Source: a virus
IMG/VR virus record: IMGVR_UViG_3300018411_000639
Location: 32,001 to 96,000 of that record
Direction: 5' to 3' (one strand)
Length of the DNA: 64,000 nucleotides
A program made the translations under genes and the position numbers. Shown in pieces: positions 4,308 to 28,851 of this stretch. Each line of letters starts with the position of its first letter. The first letter of the stretch is position 1. The notes beneath the pieces are model-generated. The model ran no database searches. It saw nothing but the letters and a program-made list of their open reading frames with translations, and was not told the origin of the DNA.

Positions 4308-7300
4308 TCACTCTGCATCGTCATCCGTTGGGGCTTCTGAGTTATAGACCGCATCACCCGTACCGCCCGGAATGATGTTTTTGCCTCCTTTTACGCCACC
4401 AACGAAAGCCTGTCCTTCCTTATCCAACGGGAAGAGCGTCACGCAGTTATTCCACTGGAACATGTCGAACAACCCCTCAAGAATGATATTCGTTACGACT
4501 TCCCCTGCGATCCATCCGGCCACGGCACCGACCCCGGGAAGGACCGTCCCTCCGGCTAAAGCTAACCCCGTCTTGAGTACGTCAGCAGCTTGCTCTGTCG
4601 TCCTAATTGCCTTGATTGCTTTGAGTCCCGTCTGTGCTGTCTTGACGTGACTCATCAGATCCAATGACTTGATGTAGTCGGCAGAGGTGCTGATGTAGCC
4701 TTTGTAGTCCTTGAATACCTTGCCGCTCTTGACCGCCTGATAGAAGTCCTTCGATAAGGAAACACCCTTTGTTGCGCCTTCGACCGCATTTGCTGCAAAG
4801 GTCCCTGAGCGCACCCCTTGGTTGATTGTCTTGAAGGCAGAGCCGCCACCGTGAATGACGGCACTAGCTGCGCCCATCGTGAGCTTGCGGGTAAAGGAGT
4901 TGGTAGAGGCGATACCGGCCCAAGCAAACATGCTCTTGATGACGTTCCCCTTTCCGGAGTTCTGTGCGTTCGACATGTTCATCAGGCCCGGTGTGATGGT
5001 TGTAACGAAACCTCCTTGAGCACTCATGGAGTGAACGACTTTCCGGACTTCGGCGACGCCGCGGATGCCCGTGTAGGCGTCATACATGTAAAATGTATCG
5101 CAGGGTTTTACGGAAGCGTCACCCAGAAGGAGTAGGCTTCCTTGGTAGGTTTCGCTCCAACTATCAAGCAGGTTTGACACCCCAATCTTGATGGCTGCCG
5201 CTTTCCCGACATCAAAGCCTAGCTTCTCGTAAAGCCAATCCCAACCGAGATAATCCTGAGATATGGTTGTGTCAATTACCGAGGTGTGTTGTTTTGACCA
5301 ATCAATCGACTTGTCGCTGTATAGAGTAGGAGTCGATTTGAGCTCTCCGCCCAGACTGTACATGGCGACAATGTTTGTCTTTACCTCTGAAGAGGAAACC
5401 TTGATTTGGTTGTCCACGATATCACACAAGGAATCGAAGTAATGGAACTGAGAAAAAGTCTTCCCTGCCTCGTAGAGTTTTTCATCCACAATGTCGTACC
5501 GGTACTTGGCAATCCATTGCGGGAGCCCGTAGAAGACACGGCTCTCGAACTGATGGTACATCGGCTGAGCAACAAACTCAGGAACACCTTGCGCCACCAT
5601 CTGCATACAATCCCAAACTGTCTTGTTGTAGATGTTGAAGTTGATGTTCTCTTCTCCGTCAGCGCCGATCAACCATCCATTTGACCCAATGAACGGTTGG
5701 CACTTGTATTTCCCAATATAGAGGTTCTTGCAAAGATCGTATTGCGACTCTTTGGCCAAGTCCGCGAACAAGCCGTTGTTCGAGTAGATTCCGAAATGTT
5801 CGATCCCGAAAGCATTAGGTTCTCCCCACTTTTCGGATAACATGTTCCCTAGTTTATTCTTGCGGGAACGCAACAGGGACGCAATGACATCCGAGGGCTC
5901 TGACCCGAACTTGAAGGCGCCGTTCTCCTGATCCTCTTTGGTGGACACTACGTCGTTGACTAATTCCGCTCCGTCGCTTTGGGCTATGATCGTAACAATG
6001 TCCCCTGCGTCTATGTCGGAAATGACACCATTGAAGCTGATTGGCAACGACATCGGGTTACTGCCATAGCCCATTCTCAGATGGATGCGACAGCCGGGCT
6101 TTACGTTCGCCGTATCGAAGATCATGTTCTTGAGGGCAATCATATTGTCCGTCACCTGCGGGCCGCCTAGCAAACTACCTGTTAGCTTGTACCAACCCAC
6201 GACAAAGGTGTCGCTGACTGCCTCTAGCGCAGTACCGACGAGCGCATCAGGGAGGCCGGCCACCACGTTTACATTATCTGGCGCATGGTCACCGACGTTT
6301 TTGTAGAAATCCCAATAGTCGCTGATGTTGTCACTCACATAAGGAGAGGGTATCTTCGGCGCCTTTGAGATTTCGTTGTAGGCGTTGCTTACCGTGATGG
6401 ATGCGGTGTGGACAGGTTGATCGTTTTCCTGAAAGACGGATACGTCAAGCAAGGAACGGTACGTGTAGAAGTTTGACCAAAGCTTTTGTCCGTCCAACCA
6501 TTCCCCGCCATCATCCACAATCAGGAACATGAACGTAGGGAAGGCCCGAAGCAGGCGACCTCTTGCGGAGTACTCCACCATATCGACCGTCATCCGGTTG
6601 AGCAACTCATCCCCTTCGGCTTCTTCCTGAAAGACTTCTTTGTTCCAGAACTGATCCGCCTTTTCGAAGACGGGCTTGCCGAAGTTATCGAAGTTAAGCG
6701 TTCCTGTCTTCGTTCCCAACGTCTTGCCTGCATCGGTTTGACTCCATGAATAAGTGGACACCGCAGGAGAAGCGGCGACAGAAGACCCCGGCGTACCGAG
6801 GGAGCTACCGTCATAGGCTTGACCTGTCAGCTGAGCGTAGTAGGCGGTCACGTTCGGAACCCAATGGACGTTTAGACCAGTCGGATCGTTAGCGGCTCCT
6901 ACGGGGCAGTATTTCGATCCAATCGCTTCGATCGTAACAAGCCCTTGGTCGATGTAACCTTTCTTCAGGTTGCTAAAGGTGAACGCAAGTCCTTCATCAA
7001 ATGTAGCAAACCGCTTGAGCGTGGACCAGTTGTTATTCCAGTCCATGATGCCGCCGGGGTTGTTGTAGTTACGGATAGCGTTGGATGTCCCGTTACCTGT
7101 TTCGTGAATTACGATAGCCGCAACGATTGCGGGGTCCACGCCGTACTGCTGCCCCAAGGAGATGAAGGTGGACCCTCTTCCCGCCAAGACACCTCCTAGT
7201 GTTTGGTTCATCGTATCCGCAGAAACCTTACTCTTTGTTTCAACGACTCTCGGTGCAGATTCGGTTCCATCGAAGGACAGGTTGCCTGTGGCCTTCCTTG

Positions 7301-9578
7301 TGCTTGTTGTCGCACTTGTCGTGCCTCCTGACGCAAACGCACGGACACGCCCGAATTGATAATAGTTCGCCCAACTCTTCTTTCCATTCGTTACGCCTTT
7401 TTGCGGATTCATCGCTTCAACCGTGTCTTCGTTCCCGAGGTAGATAGCAAGATGCCCGTCCGAAACCAACAAATCCCCTGGTTGTAGCTCGCTTTCGGAA
7501 ATCTTTTGCACACGGGCGGCGTCGTCAACCAAACCTTGATGGTTGGTGCGATACCCAGCCGGAGCAATCCCTAGCTGAATCCACAGCCAACAAATCAGAC
7601 CCGAACAGTCAAACGAGTTTGGCCCTGCCGCACCCCAGACGTAAGGCTTCCCTCTTTGGGCTTGAGCCAAGTCGATGAAGGCTTGCGTGCTTGCGTTTGC
7701 GCTTGTACTGCCTCCGATGGCACCACCTCCGCTCGACCCTCCGCTTCCGCCTGAGCTGCCAGACCAAGTCAGTGACCCGTCATCCCCTGCGATCGCTCCT
7801 TCCGGAATCTCATCGCCCCAATCCTTGTCCGGAACGGTGAAACTGTTCGGTGTCGGCTGCACATTCTTATGCAAGGTCGAGTTGGCATCTGGGTCCATGT
7901 CCTCGTATTTCATCGGGTAGAACACGTAGAAGTCCGGATCAAGGTAGACGGAGTAGTAACCGCCCGGCCCTTTGCCGGGGATGTAAGACACCTCTTTCGG
8001 ATACTCGGTGTAACCCAGAGGAGATAAACCCTTGTTCTTCCGGAAGGCTTGGATAGCAAGGATCGCCACGTTCACTTCTTTGTAAGTTGGAAGAAAGAGG
8101 TCAGGATAAAGCTCTACATGTTTCATCAGCTGTCGCTCTATTTCGTTGTCCTGTCTTGCTTTCCTTTCGAACCCGTCGTAATCCTGTGTAATGGTGTCGG
8201 CCATCGTCCCTTTTTGATTGACCGGGGAGAAGCCTTGGATACTCTCTTGTCGTTCTTGACGGGCGTTAAAGCTGATGCACTGAATTTGTATCTGGTAAAG
8301 GTCTGGGAACTCGGGAACGGTACTGACATTGATATCGTCAATCATAAGATAAGAAGTACCCGTCAGCGAGATGAGTTCGTTCTCGACCTTCACGAACCCG
8401 AAGGAGTTGAATTTCCTGTAGGTTCTTACCAGTGTCTTCGTCATGTTCTCCAGCTGCTGGAACTTGGCGATTACCTTCGCACTGGTTGTTTCCAGTGTAA
8501 AGGTGAAGGTGGTGTCCATGCCGCCCATGAATTGCATCGTGGGCGTGGACTGGTCAGCCAACTGTATCGTCGGAAGAAGGTTGGACAGACCGAACTGCAA
8601 CTCGGTCATCTGAACATTGTCCTCGTTCGTTACGATCGTAGTGAAGCTCTTGTCTTTCAGGAGGTTCTCTCCGATGGTGTAGTCTTCATCATCCACACCG
8701 GCAAGCAGGGTTTCAGGATTCAATGCCTTGAAAACGAAAGAGCCAGTGAGACTCGACTGATCTTTCCCGACAGGTTTCAGGTAGTTCGGCTCTTTTCCGT
8801 CCGAGGACATAGCCCTCTGATAGTAGTAGCGGAACAGATCCCAATCAATGTAATCCTCGAAGAAGATGCCAGGTACTTCTATATAAGGCTCCACGTTAAA
8901 CTCTTGCATAACAAGCGTTGCCTGCAGCGTATCGGGGAACCCCGGCATGGTGTTTACCGAGAACCCTGACAGAGCGACATTGAAGATGGCGTGGGTTGTG
9001 TTCAGGAAGTCATTCACGACTGGCAAGAACGGCGTGCATTTGAATTGAGCTAACAGAGGACGAAGGCCGTCCACATAATACGGACTCTTCGGAAAAGGGG
9101 ATTCCACTTCATACCCGTTGATCTGTTCGTACCCATTGAACACGAACTGGACCACAATCTCTCTTCGGGAATAACCGTGCTTCACTTTTGTCGAACCTTC
9201 TTGTCGGATGGAAACCACACTGTCGGTGGTTGAACTGGTTCTGACGGAGATGAACTCCGGAGGGATCACCAAGGAACAATCCCCTATCCGAAGTGTAAAT
9301 TCATCCGCACCGGTTCGGTGTGGGTATTCGAGGTAGTCGTAATAGTTCGGCGGCTCAACCCGTCGCTCTGGCGTGATTCGGCGAAGTCTGTCCATTACTT
9401 TCTGCGTGTCCTCGTCCTTGATACCTGTTGCCGTGGTGTCGTTGTAGCCTGGATCGGAACCTTTGAATGTTTTCTGCTTTGGCTTTAGCTTTCCGAGGAT
9501 GTCAGACAAGGCATCTGTTGTGTCCTTGCTGACTCCGATGGAAGTTAAAAATGTGTCTAGTAGATCGTCTGCCGGCAT
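4308..9578 (-). CDS. Baseplate hub / tail-associated lysin with NlpC/P60 peptidase and lysozyme-like (glucosaminidase-type) domains
   Basis: 1756 aa; GKPYVWGAAGPNSFDCSGL (Cys658) and GHLAIY (His709); AIVIHETGNG..NNPGGI..YCP..ANDP muramidase-like segment; hub-like RIHLRMGYGS and VRKVVHS..GFVTTI motifs. Confidence 0.8.
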   Translation of the reverse strand: MPADDLLDTFLTSIGVSKDTTDALSDILGKLKPKQKTFKGSDPGYNDTTATGIKDEDTQKVMDRLRRITPERRVEPPNYYDYLEYPHRTGADEFTLRIGDCSLVIPPEFISVRTSSTTDSVVSIRQEGSTKVKHGYSRREIVVQFVFNGYEQINGYEVESPFPKSPYYVDGLRPLLAQFKCTPFLPVVNDFLNTTHAIFNVALSGFSVNTMPGFPDTLQATLVMQEFNVEPYIEVPGIFFEDYIDWDLFRYYYQRAMSSDGKEPNYLKPVGKDQSSLTGSFVFKALNPETLLAGVDDEDYTIGENLLKDKSFTTIVTNEDNVQMTELQFGLSNLLPTIQLADQSTPTMQFMGGMDTTFTFTLETTSAKVIAKFQQLENMTKTLVRTYRKFNSFGFVKVENELISLTGTSYLMIDDINVSTVPEFPDLYQIQIQCISFNARQERQESIQGFSPVNQKGTMADTITQDYDGFERKARQDNEIERQLMKHVELYPDLFLPTYKEVNVAILAIQAFRKNKGLSPLGYTEYPKEVSYIPGKGPGGYYSVYLDPDFYVFYPMKYEDMDPDANSTLHKNVQPTPNSFTVPDKDWGDEIPEGAIAGDDGSLTWSGSSGGSGGSSGGGAIGGSTSANASTQAFIDLAQAQRGKPYVWGAAGPNSFDCSGLICWLWIQLGIAPAGYRTNHQGLVDDAARVQKISESELQPGDLLVSDGHLAIYLGNEDTVEAMNPQKGVTNGKKSWANYYQFGRVRAFASGGTTSATTSTRKATGNLSFDGTESAPRVVETKSKVSADTMNQTLGGVLAGRGSTFISLGQQYGVDPAIVAAIVIHETGNGTSNAIRNYNNPGGIMDWNNNWSTLKRFATFDEGLAFTFSNLKKGYIDQGLVTIEAIGSKYCPVGAANDPTGLNVHWVPNVTAYYAQLTGQAYDGSSLGTPGSSVAASPAVSTYSWSQTDAGKTLGTKTGTLNFDNFGKPVFEKADQFWNKEVFQEEAEGDELLNRMTVDMVEYSARGRLLRAFPTFMFLIVDDGGEWLDGQKLWSNFYTYRSLLDVSVFQENDQPVHTASITVSNAYNEISKAPKIPSPYVSDNISDYWDFYKNVGDHAPDNVNVVAGLPDALVGTALEAVSDTFVVGWYKLTGSLLGGPQVTDNMIALKNMIFDTANVKPGCRIHLRMGYGSNPMSLPISFNGVISDIDAGDIVTIIAQSDGAELVNDVVSTKEDQENGAFKFGSEPSDVIASLLRSRKNKLGNMLSEKWGEPNAFGIEHFGIYSNNGLFADLAKESQYDLCKNLYIGKYKCQPFIGSNGWLIGADGEENINFNIYNKTVWDCMQMVAQGVPEFVAQPMYHQFESRVFYGLPQWIAKYRYDIVDEKLYEAGKTFSQFHYFDSLCDIVDNQIKVSSSEVKTNIVAMYSLGGELKSTPTLYSDKSIDWSKQHTSVIDTTISQDYLGWDWLYEKLGFDVGKAAAIKIGVSNLLDSWSETYQGSLLLLGDASVKPCDTFYMYDAYTGIRGVAEVRKVVHSMSAQGGFVTTITPGLMNMSNAQNSGKGNVIKSMFAWAGIASTNSFTRKLTMGAASAVIHGGGSAFKTINQGVRSGTFAANAVEGATKGVSLSKDFYQAVKSGKVFKDYKGYISTSADYIKSLDLMSHVKTAQTGLKAIKAIRTTEQAADVLKTGLALAGGTVLPGVGAVAGWIAGEVVTNIILEGLFDMFQWNNCVTLFPLDKEGQAFVGGVKGGKNIIPGGTGDAVYNSEAPTDDDAE
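6013..6028 (+). repeat. Variant of dispersed motif (ATGTCGGAAATGACAC)
   Basis: 14/16 match to GTGTCGGAATTGACAC, same orientation. Confidence 0.5.
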
Positions 9579-9601
9579 CTTTTCACTCTCCTTTTATAGG
9601 G

Positions 9602-12600
9602 TTAAAACAAACCGGATAGCTTCTCTTGCAACCAGCTGTCGCTGACTTGAGAAGTGTCGTCTTGGGTATTCAGGTTCACGTTCAAGTTCGGGCCGTTGAC
9701 TTTCTCAACCGTTCGTTTGACGGCCGATAGAACAGCGGAACTGTCTTGGCTGCCTTTTGCTTTCACATGAAACTGAACGCCTTCGTTTCCGACATAAGCT
9801 TTTCTTTCTTTGGACGAAGGAGCGATGCGTGGCGAAACCGCAGGCTTCTGGTCAAACTGTCCGTTGGAGTCGGAGGACCCGCTTCCGTTCGGACGGTGAG
9901 AAGCCTTCAGAGCAGAAGGAGGAGCAGAGAACTGCATCCCTGCAAGCAGACTGGAAAGCCCTACGGCTACACCGACCCCAATCATCGTTTTCCCGAATTT
10001 ACCCATCGGCTTGCGGGCAATTTGTTCAACGGCATCCATCCCTGCACTGGCGACACTCTTTCTTTCTCCGGCACTTTGTCCTGTCTTGCGGATTGCGTCG
10101 TTGATGTCTGAGATACCACCCATGACTTCGTCCTCAAGGCCTCGGGTATTCTGTACGGTATGCCTGTCCATCGCTTGTCTTGCTTCCTCGATGGATGCGC
10201 CGTCCAGTGCTTCGAAGTAGTGGCCGATCTGTTCCGCAGTCTTTCGGGCTGCCTGTGTGTTTCTGGCACCAGAACTTCCTGCTTCGTAGATGCCACGCAA
10301 GTCATTCATGCTGACCTCGTTGATCTTGAGTCCTGCTTGATTGCCGAAAGCGATACGCGCCTCACCTAAGCCTTGGATATTCCGTTCGCTCAGGAAAGAT
10401 TGGATGATGTCGTTGCTGTTCCAATTAAGGTACTGCATCGCTTCGTCAGACTGACTGCTTGCCAAGGTGTCGAAGTCCTCGTCCAGTTGCTTCAGGATGC
10501 CTTGGTTTTGTGTAGAGGCTTGTCTCCAAGGGGTAAGCACGGTTTCTTCTTCCACCGCTTTACTTACGTTCTGATCGTTCAGGCGTTCTGCTGCGCTCTC
10601 GTCCAGGCCTCTCACCTGCTCGGCATAGCGAGTCGTTAACTGTTCGCTTACGTCATGAAGGTTGTAGAGTTGACCTCTCGCCCCTTCTGTCCGTTGGATG
10701 ATCTTCTGAATACCGACATCCCCGCTTGAAGGAGTTGGTATTGTGTCGGAATTGACACCTTTGACGGACGCAGCGTCTCTTGCCATCACGGAGTGACGGA
10801 CTTGTTCTCGTGATTCCGCACTGGCTCCTCGTTCACGGATCTGGTCATTGAACTGACGAATCAGCGAACCGGAGTCCTTGTGTCCCCTACTTCTTAACTC
10901 TCCGGCGAACTGGCTTGTGGCTTTACCTTCGTCCGTCCCGAAGAAACTTTCCTGTGCTCTTTTTGCGATTGCATGATCGTAGCCTTCGTGAGAGAGAATC
11001 GAGGATGCGACTGTTTCTCTTAGTCGATTGGCTCTCTTCCCTCTTTTCGTTACGGTAGACTCTAATACGTCTATTTTATCAGAAGGGGACTGTGATGACA
11101 ACGTCTTCGAGGCGACCAGTGCTTCGACCTGACGAAACTGAAAAGTATCGGCATCCGTCATCGCTTCATCGACAAACTGCTGAGCCCCTTTCGTTATGAT
11201 CTCTTCACGGAAGGCAGGTACATCGCTCCTTGTTCCGATACGGAAACTCTCTTGGATCTTCTGACCAAGGACTTCCATGTCAGCCCCATAGACACGCTGT
11301 TGCTTCTTCGTCTTCGTCTCCTGAAGGACAACGAATGGCTGACGGGAGCGCTCCCCTTGGCCGTAAGATTTCACTTGGTAGATACCCGGATCGTAAACAC
11401 CCTCATTTGGCATCAAGTAATTACTCTTGTCCAAGGCTACTCCGTCGATTCGGATAGCGGAGGGTTGTTTTGCTCTCCGGATGGCTTCCTGTTTTGCTCG
11501 GATAACCTCACTGCTTCCTTCTGCTGTTTCGTTCACAACAGACTTCAGGCGATCCATCAGACCTCTGGGGTTCGGTTGACTTCGGATAAGCGGAGAGTTC
11601 CAGATTTGGGTTGCACGAGGATCTTGGAACATCTTGCTCAAGGATAACAGGGATTGATTCATCGGGATATTCATATCGACTGATCCGTTCAGAATGTCAG
11701 CTGCCACAGGAGCCGTTCCTTTCGGGAAGATCGGACCTTCCATAGCGTCGATTACGTTCTGAAGACCCATCTCATGTTCTCCGTTGGCGAGTTGCGTCAG
11801 ACCTAAGCGGTACTTCGGAACCTTGGTAAGCTCTTCCCCACCATCCTTGATATGTTTAACGTCGATCGGCTTTTGTTCGGATTCATCTGTCATCTTCAAG
11901 AGATTATCTAGGTGGACTTGATCCTCTTTGCTGTCCTTAAACACTTCCTCACCGATTTCACGCAAGACATAGTTTGGTGTGGAGATGTAACCGATAGCCC
12001 CTTTGTTGTGCTTGTTCTTGATGGCGGTTGTAACGACAGCTTCGTTGTGCAGATAATTGTCTTTCAGTTTCCCTGTCGCCGTGTCCGTAGGGAGATTCTG
12101 CTCTCCCTGGATGTATGCAGCATGACGAAGGATAGCATCCCCGGCCTCATCTTCTGGATTGGAAGATCCAAACTTGATGGAGTCACCCACGTACTCGTCG
12201 ATTGCAGCAGCCATGTGGCCGTCTTTCCCTGCATTGGTAAAAGATTGCGCCTCGTAGAGTTTACGTGTCGCTAACTCAGCGGGGTCTTGTTCGTTCAACA
12301 GGCGAACGACATTGCGACCTTTCTCTTTATCGTAGCTGGATTCTAGGTTGAGGATCATGGCCTCCATATCTCCATCGACGTCGGCGTTCCAACTATTCGC
12401 TGTGTACCCTTGAAACATGAGGGTGCGACCCTTTAGTTTGTCGTTCAAGCGGACACTGACAGCTAAGTCGGAACTGGTCTTAAATACCGGGTCACGTTTA
12501 CCTGTCCCGAAAATACCGCGCTCCCTGACGTATTCCAAGCCCGCTTTCTCGAAAGCCTCGTCTGTCGCAGCAACGTAGGCGGGGGAGTTCTTCCAGTCAC

Positions 12601-18600: not shown

Positions 18601-18676
18601 GATTATCCCACATTGTCCCAAGGTTGCTGTTGAAACTGCTTCTTGTTGTGTCTCGGTTGATGTCAGCTAAATACAT
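9602..18676 (-). CDS. Giant putative virion protein: DEDDh exonuclease + Rho_N-like module + single-chain two-barrel (beta/beta'-like) RNA polymerase + C-terminal hydrophobic helix
   Basis: 3024 aa; FDLET / YNGTNYD / HLAESD; RPVQMQFQ, PGDFVKTGDVIG, KLGISGVEK; DGIMNRFMLSGRMPFSG, KRDP, NADVDGD, all in canonical order. Confidence 0.8.
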   Translation of the reverse strand: MYLADINRDTTRSSFNSNLGTMWDNPDAQELYQKQRDTLNQLLARQSRVPFAFTTYPEAAKGFDLNEIQKQAENIRNIFEVDGGDVTGFDLETLGNFGPNATESEKGLLAMTEVALVRQQVTKNASGMIQANKPISEVLTFGVEERQRRGFLELIARAEGDGWDTLSAAEQSTIKRLTVYSDPNAFVMNPRSKRFALGKLLDPDPTDLRRARSGLSNLAKVGRKQGLQTDVGRQQLISLRNAITETNNPGKALLSYNGTNYDIPFLNAVLQEQGIPAVKALNHYDARTGLSATNQGRMLSSLSGIASNQGIESFSAGSSPGSLGSWASAFGIDIDAHLAESDTKATMTLAQKSYQDVLEGVEAIRSNPNNRTVTPDNAGESVVFANKAVKIDKDGYDFMAIDGEIQPHLDYALNRNQFYQVDEMKFIPTAELDGSIASRVAKNQPGAEGLFALRFRGAGEGNQNVTGTIFRSNPDDIQALFQNDLSIHTVVEAEELTDFSQMPLKGLRSYATQVGLQGRSKYRRKAELRSALESNQAVNRIPLNPGEVTSAMVDQQVGRTISDSARRNFEGMFQLGNGRGFSYAETMYGTYSDVNIAFRETFGRPARMEDIAFLVKNGSVSELDKTLNADQVLGRLKSPQQKTTFKELYNVLKDTNITMETAINTIGTNAALTQVPSNLTPKIAGNYMETQKTLALRKAWGLLTKDPETGNSIAGNKRIADRTFADIHSIEVADVVGGNGYTRINASSNNSAGAGILNAVRGVGKHEKLPSRKKFLQVEALKSIADDLVGRQLLPAGFKHSVIGDATDPYHIAQAIGGELFQAVDSVKSRFSAEQMRDFDFGDVTSDTLYEQSVEGTLSDEDRKLWGYINSETQPMLEFDTSGFKHKGNSLDEFHASIGNTPDDIQKTVEQAINSTRPLVSIGVSEKGFAPVAEQLRAELNYDDHHLKQVESLFFNKKMGMVGAHDYAVQLFNGPDDNLMLAFTDQKHSHRLLEALTDEKGMDEIREFAGVVPMSKINMDGPVASVSKGRIEKSIIGSLNAYTDKDTGKLVTHYQDTLNESLTQYIYENKRIADMVSRGDFQAVNATVNRAFSKPILAAPGLSGVQTVVEGGQALKKVIPNMSDVASNHLVDMSSAINFLPAIYQRDEGVRKTLNEVFSPVVGGTDEKVASYMANWSQQLTDGGHNSLKKMKDMDIAVQEWYVKNLVYGEGLIQKVVDYGEEITDAQTVSEFKNLLDTGAHQILREDKVADGFVSTLDRVAMNSYGFMTGFTRPVQMQFQSFQSFDKDDLVGKEAKLDSLNIRVGESVVTREAAENYYGKMEAAGMGSYEGTVMANVRQMHTHEMLQALDATESRKEDVLAGLGGKYTSEDFDAVMQEFRLYSDTNLQHSLVNPILRKDLWNKNELNTFKIKDLETAKMTISPGDFVKTGDVIGTRELDGSTIDIVYNKASGQVGEIADDAMYVNPGKMVGEGDEARFVAEGQLRELKLGISGVEKTVASTVDLGDEYDDLVQAVWKESYGDAALVGKFELGKHLSGSVVAGSSVNYMAERFDELGVEGEFERLADEHLPSWNARYSRSETGDFLLDEAGKKTLLIEGNPSSDAGHLEGVRDMVRAIQDSPDEKVRQVAAEMRQMEQANSYRVPVRRMIMSEMHSAKGAEGDTGKGVSVTPKSNQMLGSNVGDAEFRIFTGERFEKVAQPILDRRMRIIQRSPEYAEGAKSLRGIMASLTHVMGEKSPGGVQDVNLEDLLIPKSGASVEEMMQTLFSVANENDGSFEGVDAFRVNLGGITIKNPETGERVGDVVIPLVRTHAVDGQVFFSDSQKKIASLLNSAKALEDGQSVRSGESIKQMQSRMDDAYKDMMGSFENELNHKDGIMNRFMLSGRMPFSGYAHGTVITSPVTEEMMKGESLAVAAEKAKADLENGIELSFANKESTKGLTLRGADGRIGYGDVLETSREQLEEMGVNFRDIGDQVVNERLANDNAFREQLIRKGILDGQGSLVLAGDPSREGIAGATKKELKKATRDWKNSPAYVAATDEAFEKAGLEYVRERGIFGTGKRDPVFKTSSDLAVSVRLNDKLKGRTLMFQGYTANSWNADVDGDMEAMILNLESSYDKEKGRNVVRLLNEQDPAELATRKLYEAQSFTNAGKDGHMAAAIDEYVGDSIKFGSSNPEDEAGDAILRHAAYIQGEQNLPTDTATGKLKDNYLHNEAVVTTAIKNKHNKGAIGYISTPNYVLREIGEEVFKDSKEDQVHLDNLLKMTDESEQKPIDVKHIKDGGEELTKVPKYRLGLTQLANGEHEMGLQNVIDAMEGPIFPKGTAPVAADILNGSVDMNIPMNQSLLSLSKMFQDPRATQIWNSPLIRSQPNPRGLMDRLKSVVNETAEGSSEVIRAKQEAIRRAKQPSAIRIDGVALDKSNYLMPNEGVYDPGIYQVKSYGQGERSRQPFVVLQETKTKKQQRVYGADMEVLGQKIQESFRIGTRSDVPAFREEIITKGAQQFVDEAMTDADTFQFRQVEALVASKTLSSQSPSDKIDVLESTVTKRGKRANRLRETVASSILSHEGYDHAIAKRAQESFFGTDEGKATSQFAGELRSRGHKDSGSLIRQFNDQIRERGASAESREQVRHSVMARDAASVKGVNSDTIPTPSSGDVGIQKIIQRTEGARGQLYNLHDVSEQLTTRYAEQVRGLDESAAERLNDQNVSKAVEEETVLTPWRQASTQNQGILKQLDEDFDTLASSQSDEAMQYLNWNSNDIIQSFLSERNIQGLGEARIAFGNQAGLKINEVSMNDLRGIYEAGSSGARNTQAARKTAEQIGHYFEALDGASIEEARQAMDRHTVQNTRGLEDEVMGGISDINDAIRKTGQSAGERKSVASAGMDAVEQIARKPMGKFGKTMIGVGVAVGLSSLLAGMQFSAPPSALKASHRPNGSGSSDSNGQFDQKPAVSPRIAPSSKERKAYVGNEGVQFHVKAKGSQDSSAVLSAVKRTVEKVNGPNLNVNLNTQDDTSQVSDSWLQEKLSGLF
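10743..10758 (+). repeat. Dispersed 16-bp motif GTGTCGGAATTGACAC
   Basis: Perfect copy; identity with the copy at 25564 extends to 21 bp (TTGTGTCGGAATTGACACCTT). Confidence 0.85.
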
Positions 18677-18695
18677 GCCAACCCTCCTTCATTCG

Positions 18696-21600
18696 TTATA
18701 CGAGTTTGGATGTGCGAATCTTCTCTTCGATTTCCTGTCGCTTATCCTTCTTCATTTTTACATCTACACCCACATCGCGGGTGCTGTAGCGGTAATCTAC
18801 CTCTATATCTTCTAAGCCCATCTCGGTAAGGACATCCATAAGTTTGTTTCTCACCGTCAGGGCATTACTGCGGACATTCATTTTCGGAAGAGGGATTTCT
18901 CCTTCTGCATTGGCTTGGTCGATTTGATCCTGCCAAACATCGAACTCCCCGAAGTCCAGTCCCTGCTGCTTAATCATCTTGATTTTCACACTGTCGAGGT
19001 CTGTCTCCTCGTTCCACCCTTCCCACTCTGCATCGGGCAGAACGTTCTCCTGGAAGTACGCATCCAGAGAAGGCTTATCTTCGACAGGCATTCCCCATGT
19101 ACTCTCTAAAGCTCGTCGCAGGTACTTTGGAGCCAGACTCAGAATCTTGCCCTTCTCTTCTTCCGGAGCCTTCATAAAGTACTTCATGTACTGGCGGTCT
19201 GTCTTTGGTAACGCAGCTAGAATGTTGGCCAGAGGATCTCCACGATCATAACCGTACATCGTCTTCTCCGATTTGTTGTAGTAGTCGATGGCTTTGGTGG
19301 CATCTGAGGACAGGCGAGTGACGCTTCTGTCGCTTTGGATCTCGGTCAGCTCCTTATTGATTTGACCGACAATGAGTGACTGAGAGGCTTGCATGTCAAC
19401 GTACTTTGGCGCACCTGTCTTGAACTCGAACTGATCTCTGTCTGCGTAGTTCATCTTGATGAATTTCTTGAAGTCCATCAGATCCCGTTTGCGGGCTTTC
19501 TTGTCCTGTCCGTTGAACTCGGCACTCTTCATGAAGGCTTTCACGTCGAAGCCTTCTTCTTTGAGCGTCTTTTGTGCGTACTCCTCGTAGAGTCCGCGGT
19601 ACTTCACGTATTTCAAGGTGTCGATGTATTCGTTCAGATTGCGTTCCTTCTGGCGTGTTTCTGGTATCCAGCGTTCGCCTGTCGTAGCTTCTTTTGTTCC
19701 GACAATAGCTTTCCCGATGGCGGTGACAGAGAAACCTGTCAAGGCTCCCAATATCTTTCCGTAACGGGTAGATCCGAACGCTGACCCGAGCAACGTCCCC
19801 CAAATCAAACCACTTGGTCGGTTGATGCTTTCCCGAATGGCAGGAATCAGGAAGTCACGTACAGGATGCGTCCAGTTCTGGAAATCCTTGCCGTACACTT
19901 CTCGTTGCTCGTAACTCTCTGCCGCACTTCTTACCTGAAGGACTTTCGTATGAAACGGTGTGTTCAGATGGGACACAGCCTCCCATGCTTTCCCGAAGGC
20001 GATCTCCATCGGATTGTAGCGGGCATGGATGGATGCAGGAGTGAAGTCATCCTCTTTCTCCGTAGCAAGGCCGCGCTTCACCATGGTCTTGTTTACATTC
20101 AATCCGTTGCTGTAGACCACGGCCCGAATACTGTTGACGGTATCTTTTGTGACCTGATTGGCTTCATCCATATCGTAACCGATTCTCACGGATCGACCGG
20201 GTTTCAGCAGCTGAGCCAGTTGCTTGCTCGCTTCCTCTCCCGTTCCATCTGCCATCGCTTCGCTTACGTGTACTCCGGCTAGTTTGATTGGATTGTCGGG
20301 CATCTCGTTCGCGATAAAGGTGTTGTTGCTCAGCATCTTTTTGACGGTCACAGTCTTCATTTCAAGGTTCGCCGTTTTGAATCGGTACGGATAAATCCGC
20401 ATCGGCTCTTTGGCTTCGGTGACGCGATTGTCGATGGCAGACACTTCTTCTTGCTCTTCTGTTGTGATCTTCATCTTGGACAGCATAGCCTTTGTTTCTG
20501 CATATTCTCGCGAGTACGGAGCCACATCGCCTAATATCCTCAGGCGGTCAATCGGATCGTAAAGTTCTCCTCTGCCAATCGACCCATCCGCTATACCGTT
20601 CCGGATGTAATCACGGGCTGTCCGAAGGTTATTCAAGGACTCCTGAAGCAAATCATCGCTATATTTGAATTTTGCTGTATACGTCTGATTTGGGTCGTCC
20701 CGGTTTATATATTGAACATACCCGTTCCCCTTTTCTTGTCCTAGCGCCCACATATAATAATTCACTTGTTTGTGGTGGTCTGCTCGAGCCTCTCCTGTTT
20801 TGAGGACCTCTCTAAAGCCTTTGTCACTAATTGTCTTGATGTCGACTACACCTATCTTTGTTCTCGAAGATTCGTCATGAATGACGGCATCGTAGAAACC
20901 GAGGACGCCGTTCTCTTCGTCTTCGATCTTCCCTTCTGTATCAAGGGCGAGGCCGGACTTCAACCACATATCTTCTATTTTTTTGTGGTACTCCGTTCCT
21001 TCATCAACGATACTCTGCAAGCCTTCGTCCGTAATCGGGTCTTGGTTCAGCAAGTGCTTGATGATTTCCTCGGGTTCTTTTCCTAGAGTGGACGAACCGA
21101 CACGAAGCGCCGTAGGGTCTTTGATGTTCCACGTTCGCTCGTAGCCTTCTCCAGGTAGTCGCATCTCTCCCTTGGCTACTTTCGTATAAGGGTCACCTGT
21201 TTGGAAGTTGGTAAAGTAATCCTCGCCCGGCATCCATTCTGGCATCGTGTTCTTGATTGGGTTGATGTACGCAACATCATTCCTTCTTTTCGGCAAGAAG
21301 CGTCGGAAGATTTCCGAGAACTCTCCTCCGAGCCCGCCAGCGTTCTGATCCCAGAACTGGCGATTGAACGACATAGACCAACCCGGGGTGTCTATAACTT
21401 CTTTTTCAGCTTGCGCTTCACCGGTAACGAATCCTTGGATTGCAAAGCCGTAAATACCAGCTATATCGCCCCACTGGTTCGCCTGTTCGCTCAAGCTATG
21501 CCCTACACTGTTTGGTGAAGCAACATCCCCTATTGTAGGTTCAGGCGTTACTGGTGGAGTCGTGTCCACTCGCGTGTCCGCACTTACAGCTTTGCTTAGC

Positions 21601-24428
21601 GCATACTTCCTTAGATCGAAGTTGACTTCGGATAGGCCTAAGCTATTGTCTATGTTGATGACCTGCATTCCGCCGCTCGGCGTCTGGTAAACTTCGTAGG
21701 ATTCATCCTTCGGTCGTGCGCCTGCAGTTGTGCCAATATCGACACCCAGTTCCTGTAGTTTTGGGGTCAGCAGATCGCCTGCGACAGCCGCATCGTCGGG
21801 CATCGCTCGTGATGGAGAACCTCCCGATGAAACTTGGGCTGCAGCTTCCTCTCCGCCTTCGGTAGAAGGAGCCGAACCCTGTTGCCCAGGAATCGCCGCT
21901 TGCAGACTCGGATCGACAAGTGGTTCCGTGTAAGAGGTTGCTCCGCCCTTCTGCCAATACTCTTCATGCATCCGAAGACGCGGCTTGAGGATACGACCGA
22001 TAGTAGCGCCGAAGGCCGGCCCGATGACAGGGATATTCTCGCCCTCTGGGGAAGTCATGAGGTATGGTCTGTCGTTGTAGTGCTTGCGGTCATAATAATA
22101 CTTGTCGGTGACGAAGTGACGAATCGGAGCCAATGGCTGCGTGAGTGTCGGGAACCATGCGTTCTTGAAGTATTCTTCACGGCTTCCGAACTTACTGTCG
22201 GAGAATTCTGCGTCACCCATGATTCTTCTGTAAAGGTTGGGTTGGAAGTATTGGATCTTTCCACCTGTCAAAGGCGTATTACCCATGTCCCAATAGCGTC
22301 CCTTTCTTACTTCCGTCATACCGCTCTCGTAATATTCTTCCCGTTCCTCTGTGGTGCTGGTCCAGTCTACGACGTTGATGCCGGGAATGTCTGCGATCTG
22401 TTCCGATCCTGGAGTCAGGTCGGCAATCTCTTTGGCGACTTTGGTGATGCCCAAGGAGTCCTTTACGCGATGCCAGCCGAGGTCAAAGTTCTTAACGTTC
22501 CTTGCGGTTCGCATCGTGATGTTGTCAGGGCTTCCGTTCTCGTCCTCGTCTCCGCCCTCGGTCAGGTAGTTCAGGTATTGATACCCCTGATAGGCTCCGT
22601 AGACAGGAAGGAATCGTTTCAGGACGAGGTTCGCTGCGATGTGTCCGACAGAGGCTTTGCTTTCGTTACTCATGCCCGGACCGAACATCCCGATAGCTTG
22701 ATCCATTCGGTCAAACATGAAGTACGGCAAACTCGTTCTGGATGTGACGTTATCTCCGATGGTGTCCGGCCCGCCCTCTACCTTCTTGCGTCCGGCAACG
22801 AATTGGTGCGCCCAATCTTTCAGGTCATACCCTTTGTCTTCTTTGAAGGCATCACGGAGGTTGTGGCTGTCACGGAAGGCGACAATCAGATCCTCTCCTT
22901 CTGGTGCGTTACCGAAAGCCCCCGATAGGTCGTGCTGAGATGTGACGGACTTGGACGCATGGAACATGTTCGTCTTGCCCAACTTGCGTCCCATCTCTTC
23001 GATGTAATGGTCCGGCTTGAAGATGTCAGCAAGACCTGTTTCTTGTTGATAGAGGTGCTCAACGGCCTTATCTTGAAAGCCGAGGTCAAGTGTTTCCATC
23101 ATCTTGCCGTAAAGCCGTTGGTAGGTTTTACTTTTCTCATCGTGATGCTCGTAGTCCACCAAGTTCAGGTTTGCCATCTTCCGCATCTGATCGACTTCCC
23201 GAGGCAGCCCATACGGGCCCTGTTTCTCTTTGGGTATCTTCCAGACATGGTAGTTGCTCCCGACTTTCTCAAGACCACCCATATCATCGTTGATCCTGAA
23301 CACATTCCCGTCCGAGAAGAGGAGAGGTTTGTCACCAAAGACATCCTTTATTTTGCTGTCTGTTCTGCCTGCGAGCTTGGTAACGTGAGGTTGGTACGTG
23401 TTGGCGTGCAGAAGTCCTGAAGATAGCTTGGTCCGGTTCATCTGATCGACGTCGAACAAGCGGAGCGGATTGATGCCTACAGCCGGAATCTTGAAGTCTG
23501 TTGCAAGGGAGTGGACGAGATTATTCTTCGCCTTATCTGCCTTCCGGACGTCAATGAACTCCCCGAACTCGTCCACCATGATGTTTTTATCAAGCACGAT
23601 GTTCTTGTACTTGTTAGATGAAAGCAGTGTTTCGGTTACGCCTTCCTCTGTGGTGTAGGCTGTGTTGATAAACTGATTGATCCTGTCAAGCGTCCCATCT
23701 TTGTCATCCAGACGGATGCGGTCGGTACGGGATTGCACGCCCCCGTTCTTCGCTACATGGATAAGGTCTTCCAGTGTGGCAGAACGGTAGCCTGACCGTT
23801 TCATCTTCTTCTGCCCCTCTTCGGCTGCCTGCGTCATCTTTCTGCTGACATCCTGCATGAGTTGCGACTGGACAGGTTTCCTCGCCTGAGCGACCCCTGC
23901 TTTGTTCAGTCCATCTAAAGTTGACTTCATGCGGCCCATCTCGTACCCAAGGTCAGTGTCCGAGTAAGTATGGAGCGTAACGTCTTTTGCTGCCTCGGAT
24001 AGCTTTTTGTTTTTGCTGATGACTTCCTTGTTCAGGTTCTTGATGTCGCGTCGTGTTTCTGACATCATCTCATTGAAGTTCCGGGGATTCGTCATGCGCT
24101 TCAGGTTGGCTTTCGTAGGCTCCATCCGCAACAGACTTGCCTTCGGAGCTTCGGTATTGTTCTTGCTCCAACGACGCATGGTCTGCATCGTAGTGTCCCC
24201 GTACCCCTGAAAGTCATCTGCGTAGCGGAGCAGCTCTTTGATACCGCCTTTCAGCAAGCCCGATCGGTAAGCGGCGATACCCGCGATGCCGATAGCGGAA
24301 GCGATGAGTGTACGCTTTAGTGAGCTATTCTCTCGGGCCATACCTGTCGTATCGTCTTCCGTATAATCGCTATCTCTCGATCTGACTCTCTGTGTTCTTC
24401 GCTTTTCCCATTTGCGTTCGGATTGCAT
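18696..24428 (-). CDS. Giant tail-associated / tape-measure-position protein with PD-(D/E)xK (RecB-type) nuclease and degenerate SNase-like domain
   Basis: 1910 aa; GTEYH, GFYD, VVDIKT, QVNYY motifs; VKKMLSNNTF..IKLAGV..GEEASKQL..NVNKTMVKRGLA; several hydrophobic segments; directly follows the chaperone genes; start could alternatively be Met30 (24341). Confidence 0.7.
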   Translation of the reverse strand: MQSERKWEKRRTQRVRSRDSDYTEDDTTGMARENSSLKRTLIASAIGIAGIAAYRSGLLKGGIKELLRYADDFQGYGDTTMQTMRRWSKNNTEAPKASLLRMEPTKANLKRMTNPRNFNEMMSETRRDIKNLNKEVISKNKKLSEAAKDVTLHTYSDTDLGYEMGRMKSTLDGLNKAGVAQARKPVQSQLMQDVSRKMTQAAEEGQKKMKRSGYRSATLEDLIHVAKNGGVQSRTDRIRLDDKDGTLDRINQFINTAYTTEEGVTETLLSSNKYKNIVLDKNIMVDEFGEFIDVRKADKAKNNLVHSLATDFKIPAVGINPLRLFDVDQMNRTKLSSGLLHANTYQPHVTKLAGRTDSKIKDVFGDKPLLFSDGNVFRINDDMGGLEKVGSNYHVWKIPKEKQGPYGLPREVDQMRKMANLNLVDYEHHDEKSKTYQRLYGKMMETLDLGFQDKAVEHLYQQETGLADIFKPDHYIEEMGRKLGKTNMFHASKSVTSQHDLSGAFGNAPEGEDLIVAFRDSHNLRDAFKEDKGYDLKDWAHQFVAGRKKVEGGPDTIGDNVTSRTSLPYFMFDRMDQAIGMFGPGMSNESKASVGHIAANLVLKRFLPVYGAYQGYQYLNYLTEGGDEDENGSPDNITMRTARNVKNFDLGWHRVKDSLGITKVAKEIADLTPGSEQIADIPGINVVDWTSTTEEREEYYESGMTEVRKGRYWDMGNTPLTGGKIQYFQPNLYRRIMGDAEFSDSKFGSREEYFKNAWFPTLTQPLAPIRHFVTDKYYYDRKHYNDRPYLMTSPEGENIPVIGPAFGATIGRILKPRLRMHEEYWQKGGATSYTEPLVDPSLQAAIPGQQGSAPSTEGGEEAAAQVSSGGSPSRAMPDDAAVAGDLLTPKLQELGVDIGTTAGARPKDESYEVYQTPSGGMQVINIDNSLGLSEVNFDLRKYALSKAVSADTRVDTTPPVTPEPTIGDVASPNSVGHSLSEQANQWGDIAGIYGFAIQGFVTGEAQAEKEVIDTPGWSMSFNRQFWDQNAGGLGGEFSEIFRRFLPKRRNDVAYINPIKNTMPEWMPGEDYFTNFQTGDPYTKVAKGEMRLPGEGYERTWNIKDPTALRVGSSTLGKEPEEIIKHLLNQDPITDEGLQSIVDEGTEYHKKIEDMWLKSGLALDTEGKIEDEENGVLGFYDAVIHDESSRTKIGVVDIKTISDKGFREVLKTGEARADHHKQVNYYMWALGQEKGNGYVQYINRDDPNQTYTAKFKYSDDLLQESLNNLRTARDYIRNGIADGSIGRGELYDPIDRLRILGDVAPYSREYAETKAMLSKMKITTEEQEEVSAIDNRVTEAKEPMRIYPYRFKTANLEMKTVTVKKMLSNNTFIANEMPDNPIKLAGVHVSEAMADGTGEEASKQLAQLLKPGRSVRIGYDMDEANQVTKDTVNSIRAVVYSNGLNVNKTMVKRGLATEKEDDFTPASIHARYNPMEIAFGKAWEAVSHLNTPFHTKVLQVRSAAESYEQREVYGKDFQNWTHPVRDFLIPAIRESINRPSGLIWGTLLGSAFGSTRYGKILGALTGFSVTAIGKAIVGTKEATTGERWIPETRQKERNLNEYIDTLKYVKYRGLYEEYAQKTLKEEGFDVKAFMKSAEFNGQDKKARKRDLMDFKKFIKMNYADRDQFEFKTGAPKYVDMQASQSLIVGQINKELTEIQSDRSVTRLSSDATKAIDYYNKSEKTMYGYDRGDPLANILAALPKTDRQYMKYFMKAPEEEKGKILSLAPKYLRRALESTWGMPVEDKPSLDAYFQENVLPDAEWEGWNEETDLDSVKIKMIKQQGLDFGEFDVWQDQIDQANAEGEIPLPKMNVRSNALTVRNKLMDVLTEMGLEDIEVDYRYSTRDVGVDVKMKKDKRQEIEEKIRTSKLV

Positions 24429-25095
24429 TCATCACACCCTCATTCTGCCAATGGACGCCTCCGATGAGAGGGAAGTCCATGAAGTCTTTCTTCTGGTTAA
24501 ATTCGTCTTTGAAGTATATCATCGGATCCATTCCGTTAGCCCTCAGTTCATCCACAAACGCTTTGTTGTCAGAACCCGAGTTCTCGGCGTACTCCTCTAC
24601 TTCTTGTTGGTTGGTGGTGAGTTGGATGTTATGACCTTTCAGGTTCAGGATTCTCTCTGCCCTTGCTACCGCCAGCATCAAGCGATCCCATGTCCAGTCT
24701 TCCATCTGCTCGTAGGAGTATTCCGGCATAGCCGCCTTGACGACAGCCATACACTCCTGGTCGAATTGCTTGGTCTTTCTCTTCCCTTTCTCGTAGGCAT
24801 CCAGAACGGAACCCAAACTGGTGAAGTTTGAAGCCTCGACGATCATCGGGCACGCATACGCCGACACCCCCGCAAGAGGGTAGTTCTCGAAGTCAATGTC
24901 TGCGGGCTCAAGGATGGCCGCTTGGCAGATGGCATCTTCCATGTCGTGGTCATCCTGCGTCAAGTTGGTGATGTCCCGATACTCTTTTCGCGTCAGGGTC
25001 CGAAAGACGAATTCTTTATTCTGAAAAAGGACATAAATCACTTTATGTCCTTCATGTGCTTCTTTGTGGTAAAACAAATCATAGATGGAGATCAT
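24370..25095 (-). CDS. Putative tail assembly chaperone (paralogue 2)
   Basis: 241 aa; FVFRTLTRKEY..EDAICQ motif shared with the upstream gene; position before the giant tail genes. Confidence 0.55.
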   Translation of the reverse strand: MISIYDLFYHKEAHEGHKVIYVLFQNKEFVFRTLTRKEYRDITNLTQDDHDMEDAICQAAILEPADIDFENYPLAGVSAYACPMIVEASNFTSLGSVLDAYEKGKRKTKQFDQECMAVVKAAMPEYSYEQMEDWTWDRLMLAVARAERILNLKGHNIQLTTNQQEVEEYAENSGSDNKAFVDELRANGMDPMIYFKDEFNQKKDFMDFPLIGGVHWQNEGVMNAIRTQMGKAKNTESQIER

Positions 25096-25106: not shown

Positions 25107-25712
25107 CTATAATATCTGGATGGAGTAGTCTTTTGTGAATCCGCTATTCTCCATGACGATCTGTGCATAGGTTGACGGGATGCCCGCTTTTCCGATAGCC
25201 ATCTTACGGAAGTCGTACTTGCTTGGCCAAAGCGTACAGGTCTCACAAATGATTTCTTCTCTCTGCAGAGGGTCAAGGTTTGGGATAGCTGCGAGCTGTT
25301 TGTACTCGAAGCGGTTCAGAGTGCGGAAGACGAAGTACTGTCCCATGATTTCGATAGCCATAAGGTTGTAGTCTTCCCATTGGCGCTTCCACGTTTCGAC
25401 TTGTGTGATGGTAGGTCCACCCACAAAGAGGGGTTCGTCATAAGCGTAGAGTTCAGGGTTGTCGCCGAGTTCTCCTTCTTCCGGCTCGCTTCTCAGCGTA
25501 GGTAGGTCTTCCCACTCTTCCGGTTCGTTCTGCAGATGAACACTTTCCTCGGTTTCTTCGCTTGTGTCGGAATTGACACCTTCAACTACTTCATTGTCAT
25601 CTCGGAACGATGCGTACAGGTCTTCGTTTGCTGCAGGTTCCTCACTGATTTGCTTGGATAGTTTTTCTTTGGCTTGCTTTGCTAATTGATCTAGGTTTCC
25701 TCCGCTGAACAT
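25107..25712 (-). CDS. Putative tail assembly chaperone (paralogue 1)
   Basis: 201 aa; acidic N-terminus; FVFRTLNRFEY..EEIICE motif; position after the tube genes. Confidence 0.6.
   Translation of the reverse strand: MFSGGNLDQLAKQAKEKLSKQISEEPAANEDLYASFRDDNEVVEGVNSDTSEETEESVHLQNEPEEWEDLPTLRSEPEEGELGDNPELYAYDEPLFVGGPTITQVETWKRQWEDYNLMAIEIMGQYFVFRTLNRFEYKQLAAIPNLDPLQREEIICETCTLWPSKYDFRKMAIGKAGIPSTYAQIVMENSGFTKDYSIQIL
25564..25579 (+). repeat. Dispersed 16-bp motif GTGTCGGAATTGACAC
   Basis: Perfect copy inside the chaperone gene. Confidence 0.85.
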
Positions 25713-26247: not shown

Positions 26248-26271
26248 AATAGCACCTCTTTTATCTTCTCC

Positions 26272-26300: not shown

Positions 26301-26301
26301 T

Positions 26302-28823: not shown

Positions 28824-28851
28824 AGCATAACACTCCTTTCGTATCATATAG

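Follow-up and report, generated by a model that had tools for sequence, protein, structure and literature searches.

The window, the 64,000-nucleotide stretch of DNA analysed here, corresponds to bases 32001-96000 of the 112.6-kb IMG/VR virus contig IMGVR_UViG_3300018411_000639, the completeness of which is estimated at 51%. On its minus strand lie three consecutive giant open reading frames (ORFs), which in the order of transcription occupy positions 24428..18696 (gene 1; protein P0001, 1910 aa), 18676..9602 (gene 2; P0002, 3024 aa) and 9578..4308 (gene 3; P0003, 1756 aa) and are separated by 20 and 24 nt. All features of the window described below are on the same strand. This trio, and in particular the RNA polymerase (RNAP) encoded by its middle gene, is the subject of our analysis. 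An earlier note on the same DNA read the trio as a DNA-entry cassette with two wall hydrolases, up to three nuclease folds and an RNAP, standing in place of a tape measure gene. The three ORFs have the positions and lengths given there, with orthologues of tail chaperones upstream and baseplate genes downstream. The hydrophobic Gly/Ala-rich segment described for each protein is likewise found in the Kyte-Doolittle scan (P0001 residues 1538-1577, P0002 residues 2894-2916 and P0003 residues 1672-1700).

The source of the window is a contractile-tailed jumbo myophage of ~200 kb related to Bacillus phage 0305phi8-36, and the window covers about half of its genome. PHROG matches reveal a contractile-tail module, with two sheath paralogues and tube paralogues upstream of the trio and baseplate genes downstream. 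In tblastn searches, P0001 matches ORF145 of 0305phi8-36 (34% identity, 87% of the query covered) and, more weakly, proteins of Bacillus phages KLEB27-3, Edson and WH1 and of Moorella phage MTATph1. The gene order in 0305phi8-36 is identical: sheath and tube genes are followed by gp143 and gp144, both annotated as 'tail chaperonin', then by ORF145, ORF146 and ORF147, a P2 gpV-like gene and the baseplate genes. Orthologues of the two chaperones are encoded next to gene 1 in the window, at 25107..25712 (gp143; BLASTP 35% identity, E 2e-34; phrog_29362) and 24370..25095 (gp144; 29% identity, E 4e-27; phrog_29368). According to the notes in the 0305phi8-36 record, mass spectrometry detected both ORF145 and ORF146 in virions; ORF146 is named a 'hypothetical tape measure protein', and ORF147 an 'endolysin' with wall-degrading domains, the last note covering domain content only. 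Because the gene order is the same, the chaperone orthologues lie upstream and P0003 aligns with gp147, the trio is the conserved tail-core module of a 0305phi8-36-like jumbo myophage, the counterpart of gp145-gp146-gp147, rather than a replacement of that module. The trio is thus a conserved syntenic block with two counterparts, gp145 and gp146, noted as virion-detected. The idea of a cassette instead of a tape measure gene is not supported, since the RNAP-bearing giant itself occupies the tape-measure position and has its C-terminal anchor in common with gp146, the putative tape measure protein (TMP). The genomic context of relatives was taken from IMG/VR loci.

Gene 2 (9602..18676) is assigned to the tape-measure position by synteny with the gp146 gene and by the C-terminal homology of the two products. 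Its relatives are distant. An exhaustive HMMER search with P0002 residues 1500-2650 retrieved 41 of them, most being 2800-3400 aa long, and those in cultured phages surfaced only via the hidden Markov model (HMM) of the family. Of 50,697 phage records, none matched gene 2 in megablast or tblastn searches, a word-index protein search with the polymerase region found a single relative, and no related locus was retrieved by either the polymerase alignment or that region alone. ESM Atlas contained no usable match for residues 1500-2650 or 370-1230, and phmmer searches with P0001 and P0002 against PDB sequences were also negative. In an alignment of the 33 longest relatives, the core region is 20-31% identical to P0002. 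Residues kept in 31-33 of these 33 sequences fall into three regions: D90, E92, N257, D262, H337 and D342 (each in 32-33) in an exonuclease domain; R1273, K1488, E1495, K1496, K1533 and H1534 in a region resembling RNAP beta subunits; and R2061, P2063, D2099, D2101, D2103, K2225, G2229, S2232, E2267, Q2268 and K2274 in a region resembling beta' subunits.

The N-terminal domain of P0002 (residues ~65-366; 17579..18484) is a DEDDh (DnaQ-like) 3'-5' exonuclease, as judged from a structural model and the conserved residues. The model of residues 1-1200 has a predicted local distance difference test score (pLDDT) of 78.6 overall and ~90 in the exonuclease stretch. Its closest VIA matches have Z scores in the range of 13-14.6 and include ExoI (14.2) and the Pol III epsilon subunit (13.2); Foldseek matches include RNase T and TREX1/2. 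The Exo I, II and III motifs, comprising four acidic residues and a histidine (D90, E92, D262, H337, D342), are present on the RNase H-like fold, and the match to RNase_H_2 (21.7 bits) is just under the 22-bit cut-off. The exonuclease is thus predicted to be an intact, active-type DEDDh enzyme. It is possible that it edits transcript 3' ends, processes the ends of incoming DNA or attacks host nucleic acids. Residues ~370-1230 form folded but unassigned alpha/beta domains in the model, the exonuclease domain filling the list of structural matches. Altogether, ~2300 of the 3024 residues are modelled as globular enzyme and not as extended helix.

The central part of P0002 contains the RNAP that the earlier note had announced. 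The AlphaFold2 model of residues 1230-2330, built from 35 family sequences (pLDDT 80.1, predicted template modelling score 0.81), matches both beta and beta' subunits of RNAPs. The beta-like half (residues ~1251-1660; 13697..14926), defined by VIA matches, corresponds to model residues 22-430 and aligns with beta/Rpb2 subunits, with Z scores of 13.3 for plastid PEP, 12.5 for the non-virion RNAP (nvRNAP) of phiKZ and 12.2 for that of AR9, and of 10-11.6 for the subunits of Pol IV, Pol I, African swine fever virus and vaccinia virus. The beta'-like half (residues ~1730-2330; 11687..13489) is supported by both Foldseek and VIA. Foldseek returned more than 300 PDB matches to the polymerase model at E <= 0.001, with E about 1e-5 for this half, and all matches listed are to largest RNAP subunits (bacterial beta' and one yeast Pol I chain). 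In VIA, model residues ~500-1100 match Rpb1/beta' with Z scores of 9.4-7.7. Single-chain enzymes are aligned across both halves, namely QDE-1 (Z 9.3), P74-26 gp62 (8.5), RDR2 (8.5), the enzyme of crAss-like phage phi14:2 (6.5) and P23-45 gp96 (6.3).

The metal-binding motif DVDGD (residues 2099-2103; 12368..12382) is located by the family alignment and by a PF00623 match that is weak but falls on the expected profile positions. D2099, D2101 and D2103 are each present in 32 of 33 family members. The motif is part of NADVDGD, which starts at residue 2096 and mirrors NADFDGD, the motif of beta' subunits. A basic pair in the beta-like half, K1488 and K1496, is conserved to the same extent (32 of 33 each); it agrees with the conserved basic pair that two-barrel RNAPs have in the beta barrel and may lie at the active site. 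The beta-like half also contains a lipoyl/biotinyl-type barrel-sandwich hybrid insert (residues ~1404-1480, or ~173-254 of the model), which has a weak Pfam match to RnfC_N. Cellular-type beta subunits typically have an insert of this kind, and enzymes of the YonO/RNA-dependent RNA polymerase (RdRP) type lack it (Iyer et al., PMC7824862). The beta/beta' matches and the hybrid-barrel insert place the polymerase in the cellular-type branch, and the model describes a complete single-chain beta-beta' two-barrel RNAP. No match to PF05183, the profile of the YonO/RdRP-type enzymes, is found in the 112.6-kb contig, so P0002 does not belong to that family.

The C-terminal part of P0002 is of a different nature. 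The only strongly hydrophobic segment in the protein, at residues 2894-2916 (9929..9997; hydropathy scan), is followed by a tail (9605..9928; BLASTP to gp146 and family HMM) that is common to gp146 and the variants of the gene in this position. The hydrophobic segment is conserved: in 23 of 33 family members, one that passes a stricter threshold is found at a distance of 117-136 residues from the C-terminus. In BLASTP, the common ground of P0002 and gp146 consists of this segment with the tail and a weak stretch at residues 2431-2633, and of nothing else; correspondingly, gp146 matches the family HMM only at positions 2317-2496 and 2731-2879. Neither the DxDxD motif nor the exonuclease nor the polymerase core is present in 0305phi8-36 gp146. 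HMM positions 2731-2879 are matched by gp146, KLEB27-3 gp034, Edson 0920 and MTATph1 CDS0031.

The distribution of these variants was assessed in a census of 27 IMG/VR loci with a gp145-like gene, in which the next downstream gene was typed; all loci are related and some are near-duplicates. In thirteen loci the product is of the exonuclease-polymerase type, is 2456 to >3333 aa long and has a DxD[GA]D motif. Twelve, including 0305phi8-36, encode 'plain' proteins of 1237-2706 aa without the exonuclease-polymerase modules, and in two the gene is cut by the contig end. Several plain proteins also match the C-terminal HMM positions, and six of the ten scanned have a hydrophobic segment 108-139 residues from the C-terminus. 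By the HMM, the family further includes KLEB27-3 gp034 (2434 aa, motif ADYDGD), annotated as 'structural protein', and Edson 0920 (2515 aa, motif ADHDGD). In WH1 the whole trio is annotated as virion structural proteins, and its middle gene product, gp095 (2515 aa), is probably of the polymerase type. Sequence comparison thus points to a conserved C-terminal membrane and hub anchor bearing variable N-terminal content. In MTATph1 (locus L015, 21858-29214) the gene in this position is apparently broken up into a 1309-aa ORF followed by a transposase gene and small ORFs; of these pieces, the last ORF (313 aa) is the only one that matches the conserved C-terminal tail.

Gene 1 (18696..24428) encodes the gp145 orthologue. 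P0001 has more than 291 homologues, 43-59% identical across residues 1080-1600, and in an alignment of 32 sequences the family has a mean column identity of 52% and hundreds of invariant positions. Residues 1137-1279 (20592..21020) form a PD-(D/E)xK (Cas4/RecB-like) nuclease domain (phrog_1706, E 4e-14; PDDEXK_1, E 7e-4). H1148, D1180, D1196, K1198, Q1221 and Y1225, which make up the catalytic D, D/E, K and QxxxY motifs, are invariant or nearly so in the 32 sequences, and gp145 of 0305phi8-36 keeps them all except for Y1225, which is Phe there. By these motifs the nuclease is intact. Residues 1397-1457 (20058..20240) form an SNase-like domain of the oligonucleotide/oligosaccharide-binding fold (PF00565, 22.1 bits, E 2e-4 on a sub-fragment). 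Because H, R or S takes the place of the Asp in its GxDxPE-type motif across the family, this domain is probably a non-catalytic binding domain rather than a nuclease. Hence, of the three nuclease folds expected in the trio, all were found, PD-(D/E)xK, DEDDh and SNase-like, but the last looks inactive. The paired Gly-rich hydrophobic segments (residues 1538-1577; 19698..19817) contain invariant glycines (G1548, G1552, G1565) and pass the hydropathy threshold in 26 of 40 members.

Several gp145-like proteins (e.g. P0059, P0065, P0069, P0152) are 300-900 aa longer and carry intein and LAGLIDADG domains (PF14528, PF14890), as would fit a protein that is highly conserved and probably essential. 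In KLEB27-3 (locus L016, 13535-20688) the annotation divides the gp145-like gene into two genes for structural proteins, gp031 and gp033, with a 211-aa ORF between them that may be an intervening mobile element. The annotated start of gene 1 overlaps the gp144-type chaperone gene by 59 nt (24370-24428); the overlap of ORF144 and ORF145 in 0305phi8-36 is 53 nt. An in-frame Met at P0001 residue 30 would abolish the overlap, so that the true start of gene 1 is uncertain. P0001 directly follows the chaperones and was considered as the real tape measure, which is unlikely given that the family is unusually conserved, unlike the fast-diverging TMPs.

Gene 3 (4308..9578) encodes the gp147 orthologue, with two long blocks aligned in BLASTP (E 2e-97 and 3e-69) and a match to phrog_20474 of 1025 bits. 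gp147 has been described as an enlarged hub of the T4 gp27 type (Hardies et al., PMC2147016), and P0003 is assigned likewise. Both wall hydrolases of the trio reside in this protein and are confirmed by matches above the Pfam cut-offs: an NlpC/P60 peptidase at residues 643-730 (7389..7652; PF00877, 51.7 bits) and a glucosaminidase at residues 804-878 (6945..7169; PF01832, 33.1 bits). Its counterpart in G001, a complete relative with terminal repeats (199.8 kb), has the same two domains. The Gly/Ala-rich hydrophobic segment near the C-terminus (residues 1672-1700; 4479..4565) aligns with the corresponding part of gp147.

Several other genes of the structural region deserve mention. Between the tube gene and the chaperones, three genes (25732-28847) encode proteins with tail-tube-like N-terminal parts (phrog_9206, phrog_34314) and endolysin-type cell-wall-binding segments (phrog_1493, 1224, 2649), which suggests that they are tube paralogues with wall-binding domains. 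There are two tail-sheath paralogues, of 787 aa (29761-32124) and 521 aa (32927-34492), just as 0305phi8-36 has two (gp139 and gp137). ORFs of 1384, 996 and 280 aa (41549-45703, 46864-49854 and 35034-35876, respectively) have no PHROG match at E <= 0.001.

A canonical TMP is not found alongside the trio, in line with the earlier note, which saw no obvious one. The TMP profiles PF10145 (PhageMin_Tail) and PF06791 (TMP_2) match nothing in the contig or in the complete genome of G001, including P0001, P0002 and P0003 themselves, and they do match the control genomes. G001 encodes the same trio, of 1872, 2902 and 1923 aa, and has no other giant gene in the tail-core position. The only other giant ORF of G001 (4158 aa; locus L020, 151496-163972) was rejected as a hidden TMP: it is located beyond the baseplate genes, and the invasin D3/Big_1 Ig-like domains at its end make a giant fibre or adhesin probable.

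Several relatives possess a second, unrelated polymerase gene that matches PF05183. Among complete genomes with a polymerase-type protein in the gene 2 position, such a gene is found in all six of G001-G006, and G010 has a weak match below the cut-off. It is absent from the three complete genomes with a plain protein (G007-G009), present in 0305phi8-36 (orf99), which is also of the plain type, and absent from the polymerase-type phages KLEB27-3 and Edson. No PF05183 gene was found in the contig of the window, which is polymerase-type and represents about half a genome. Profile comparison of the P0002 polymerase with the PF05183 protein of G001 reveals no similarity; thus, the two are not recent paralogues. 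G004 (IMGVR_UViG_3300010163_000003) has PF05183 matches at 3307-4038 and 204718-206898 and may encode two YonO/RdRP-type polymerases besides the tail giant.

Taken together, these data make it likely that gene 2 encodes a virion RNAP delivered from the tail core, equipped with a DEDDh exonuclease and a C-terminal membrane anchor and belonging to a conserved 0305phi8-36-like tail-core module. From the folds, motifs, conservation, synteny and distribution described above, we infer the following order of events. P0002 would be built into the tail core, its conserved C-terminal tail probably docked on the hub P0003. The two hydrolases of the hub would open the wall, and P0002 would then be expelled on sheath contraction and kept at the membrane by the hydrophobic helix ~125 residues from its end. 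There it could transcribe the earliest phage genes during DNA entry, the role proposed for gp96 of phage P23-45. P0001 would probably be co-ejected as a nuclease. In the closest complete relatives, the YonO/RdRP-type polymerase would be the likely next step of a host-independent cascade.

Several observations weigh against this reading. The placing of the polymerase-type giants in virions relies on the mass-spectrometry notes for gp146 and on GenBank labels, and the 'structural protein' labels may reflect homology alone. By our own estimate, the folded core of ~120 kDa would be wider than the lumen of the tail tube, and P0002 would therefore have to be stored partly unfolded or elsewhere, in the head or the baseplate. 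A search for promoter-like repeated motifs at both ends of the complete G001 genome yielded only chance-level pairs and a coding tandem repeat. In hhalign, P0002 and P23-45 gp96 are aligned only over the R-x-P...DxDGD stretch, with an insignificant E value of 0.094, so that the analogy with gp96 is architectural. The fused exonuclease fits no explained role in transcription. The co-occurrence with PF05183 genes is counted in related, non-independent genomes and is suggestive only; KLEB27-3 and Edson, without PF05183, and 0305phi8-36, with PF05183 but without a polymerase giant, break the pattern, and a two-polymerase cascade is thus not universal. The further suggestion of the earlier note that transcription might pull in the genome is unsupported for the genome as a whole, and transcription-driven entry has been judged probably too slow to serve alone at such a genome size (Hardies et al., PMC2147016).

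The best-surviving alternative is that gene 2 is the true full-length ruler, with enzyme domains as passengers, so that tail length scales with all 3024 residues. The gene indeed lies after the chaperones and before the hub, and the lengths of the family members cluster at 2800-3400 aa. A tail-length argument for the tape measure of 0305phi8-36 was reportedly made by Thomas et al. in 2007. gp146 was identified as the TMP because its length correlates with that of the tail (PMC2147016), and the fused P23-45 protein is also regarded as a ruler (PMC10770324). However, residues 1-2330 of P0002 are predicted to form compact alpha/beta domains, not extended helices, and the positional homologues range from 1237 to >3333 aa inside one lineage. 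It is gene 1, not gene 2, that directly follows the chaperones. The content of helix-forming residues, a crude index that gives a weak indication, is 38-46% per 200-aa segment versus 46-68% in most of P23-45 gp96. We regard full-length measurement as possible but rather doubtful.

Another explanation is that gene 2 encodes a non-structural polymerase that merely resides in the tail operon, is made late and stays unpackaged, serving late or middle transcription. Virion detection is on record for the plain-type gp146, not for polymerase-type members, and folded enzymes of such size are awkward cargo for a tail tube. Nevertheless, we find this explanation improbable, given that gp146, noted as virion-detected, has a homologous C-terminal module, that the hydrophobic segment and the tail are conserved in polymerase-free positional homologues, that only 20-24 nt separate gene 2 from its tail-core neighbours, and that the genomes also have a separate non-tail polymerase gene.

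Finally, the two-barrel enzyme could be a PolD-like polymerase with a fused proofreading exonuclease, synthesising DNA or making primers on incoming genome ends. Fusion to a DEDDh 3'-5' exonuclease is a hallmark of replicative DNA polymerases, archaeal PolD is also a two-barrel enzyme, and polymerase proofreading domains are among the best matches of the exonuclease. We know of no two-barrel RNAP with a fused DEDDh domain, and a literature search for one found none. This role is very improbable, however, because the best structural matches are RNAP beta/beta' subunits and QDE-1-type enzymes, with no PolD chain among the 50 matches listed, because NADVDGD mirrors the beta' motif, and because cellular-type RNAPs typically have the beta-type hybrid-barrel insert (PMC7824862).

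A tail-core-delivered RNAP would have several implications. Tape-measure-linked virion RNAPs have been documented so far in a single small group of siphoviruses infecting Thermus. The present case, if confirmed, would be a second, independent origin, in contractile-tailed jumbo phages of Firmicutes-type hosts, from a different polymerase lineage and with an exonuclease added, and enzyme carriage in the tail core would be a recurring strategy, not a curiosity. Polymerase-bearing (~2450 to >3330 aa) and plain (1237-2706 aa) proteins on the same anchor constitute a natural experiment on how tail length is set and on how a tail tube lets large folded proteins through. These questions can be tested directly in the cultured phages KLEB27-3, Edson and probably WH1, and the exonuclease-polymerase fusion may point to a novel way of processing transcripts or template ends. 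More speculatively, the protein in this position might be a modular delivery vehicle, with a C-terminal membrane/hub anchor and exchangeable N-terminal cargo, the unusually long tail being partly a cargo hold; the RNAP and DEDDh exonuclease would then be cargo co-injected with the PD-(D/E)xK protein. We put this forward tentatively and think it on balance unlikely. If true, P0002 would be the first two-barrel RNAP with its own DEDDh exonuclease, for RNA 3'-end editing or the processing of entering DNA ends, and the phage would combine a fully host-independent start with a weapon against host nucleic acids.

Among known systems, the crAss-like (phi14:2 gp66) and N4-like virion RNAPs are also very large polymerase-embedding proteins, delivered with the DNA to start transcription. 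Unlike P0002, these belong to podoviruses, are packaged in the capsid, and are neither in the tape-measure position nor associated with a DEDDh domain; the N4 enzyme is T7-like, and that of phi14:2 matches the P0002 model only at Z 6.5. RNAPs of the phiKZ-like and AR9-like phages are closer in the beta-like half, where they are among the best matches (Z 12.5 and 12.2), and they too come from jumbo phages with separate virion and non-virion enzymes. They consist of several subunits, however, and are packaged in the head, whereas the beta and beta' halves are here fused in one chain of the tail module. 0305phi8-36 has the same trio after the same two chaperones, with clear orthology for gp145 and gp147 and a common C-terminal part for gp146. 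It differs in that gp146 lacks DxDxD, exonuclease and polymerase core, its sole two-barrel RNAP being the non-structural orf99.

The closest analogue is P23-45. Its tape measure, gp96, is 5002 residues long, and the N-terminal 1200 of these form a two-barrel RNAP that has the motif DFDGD (Chaban et al. 2024, PMC10770324). Virions contain gp96, which transcribes pre-early genes, one of which encodes a second, non-virion RNAP, and the authors proposed that the enzyme stays on the pore formed by the tape measure during DNA entry (PMC10770324). Our full-text literature search, which was not exhaustive, found no other report of a tape-measure-linked two-barrel polymerase, and KLEB27-3, WH1 and 0305phi8-36 are not listed in the accessible part of the supplementary files of PMC10770324. 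No paper on KLEB27-3 or WH1 was found in the literature search. In both systems, a giant protein in the tape-measure position has a membrane segment C-terminal to a DxDGD-containing two-barrel RNAP, and a second, non-virion two-barrel RNAP is encoded elsewhere, here in the close complete relatives G001-G006. P23-45 is, however, a siphovirus of ~84 kb, in contrast to a contractile-tailed phage of ~200 kb. Unlike in gp96, the polymerase of P0002 is internal (~1250-2330), preceded by the DEDDh exonuclease and ~860 unassigned residues; it has a beta-type hybrid-barrel insert and matches multisubunit beta/beta' enzymes (Z 13) better than gp96 (Z 6.3 and 5.9 for structures 8h2m and 8h2n). No metallopeptidase domain was found in P0002, and its gene is flanked by that of a nuclease-bearing giant. 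The second polymerase of the relatives is from the unrelated family PF05183 rather than a paralogue. What is new with respect to P23-45 is therefore the contractile-tailed jumbo lineage, the different polymerase branch, the DEDDh exonuclease, the presence or absence of the enzymes on a common anchor, and the nuclease-bearing partner.

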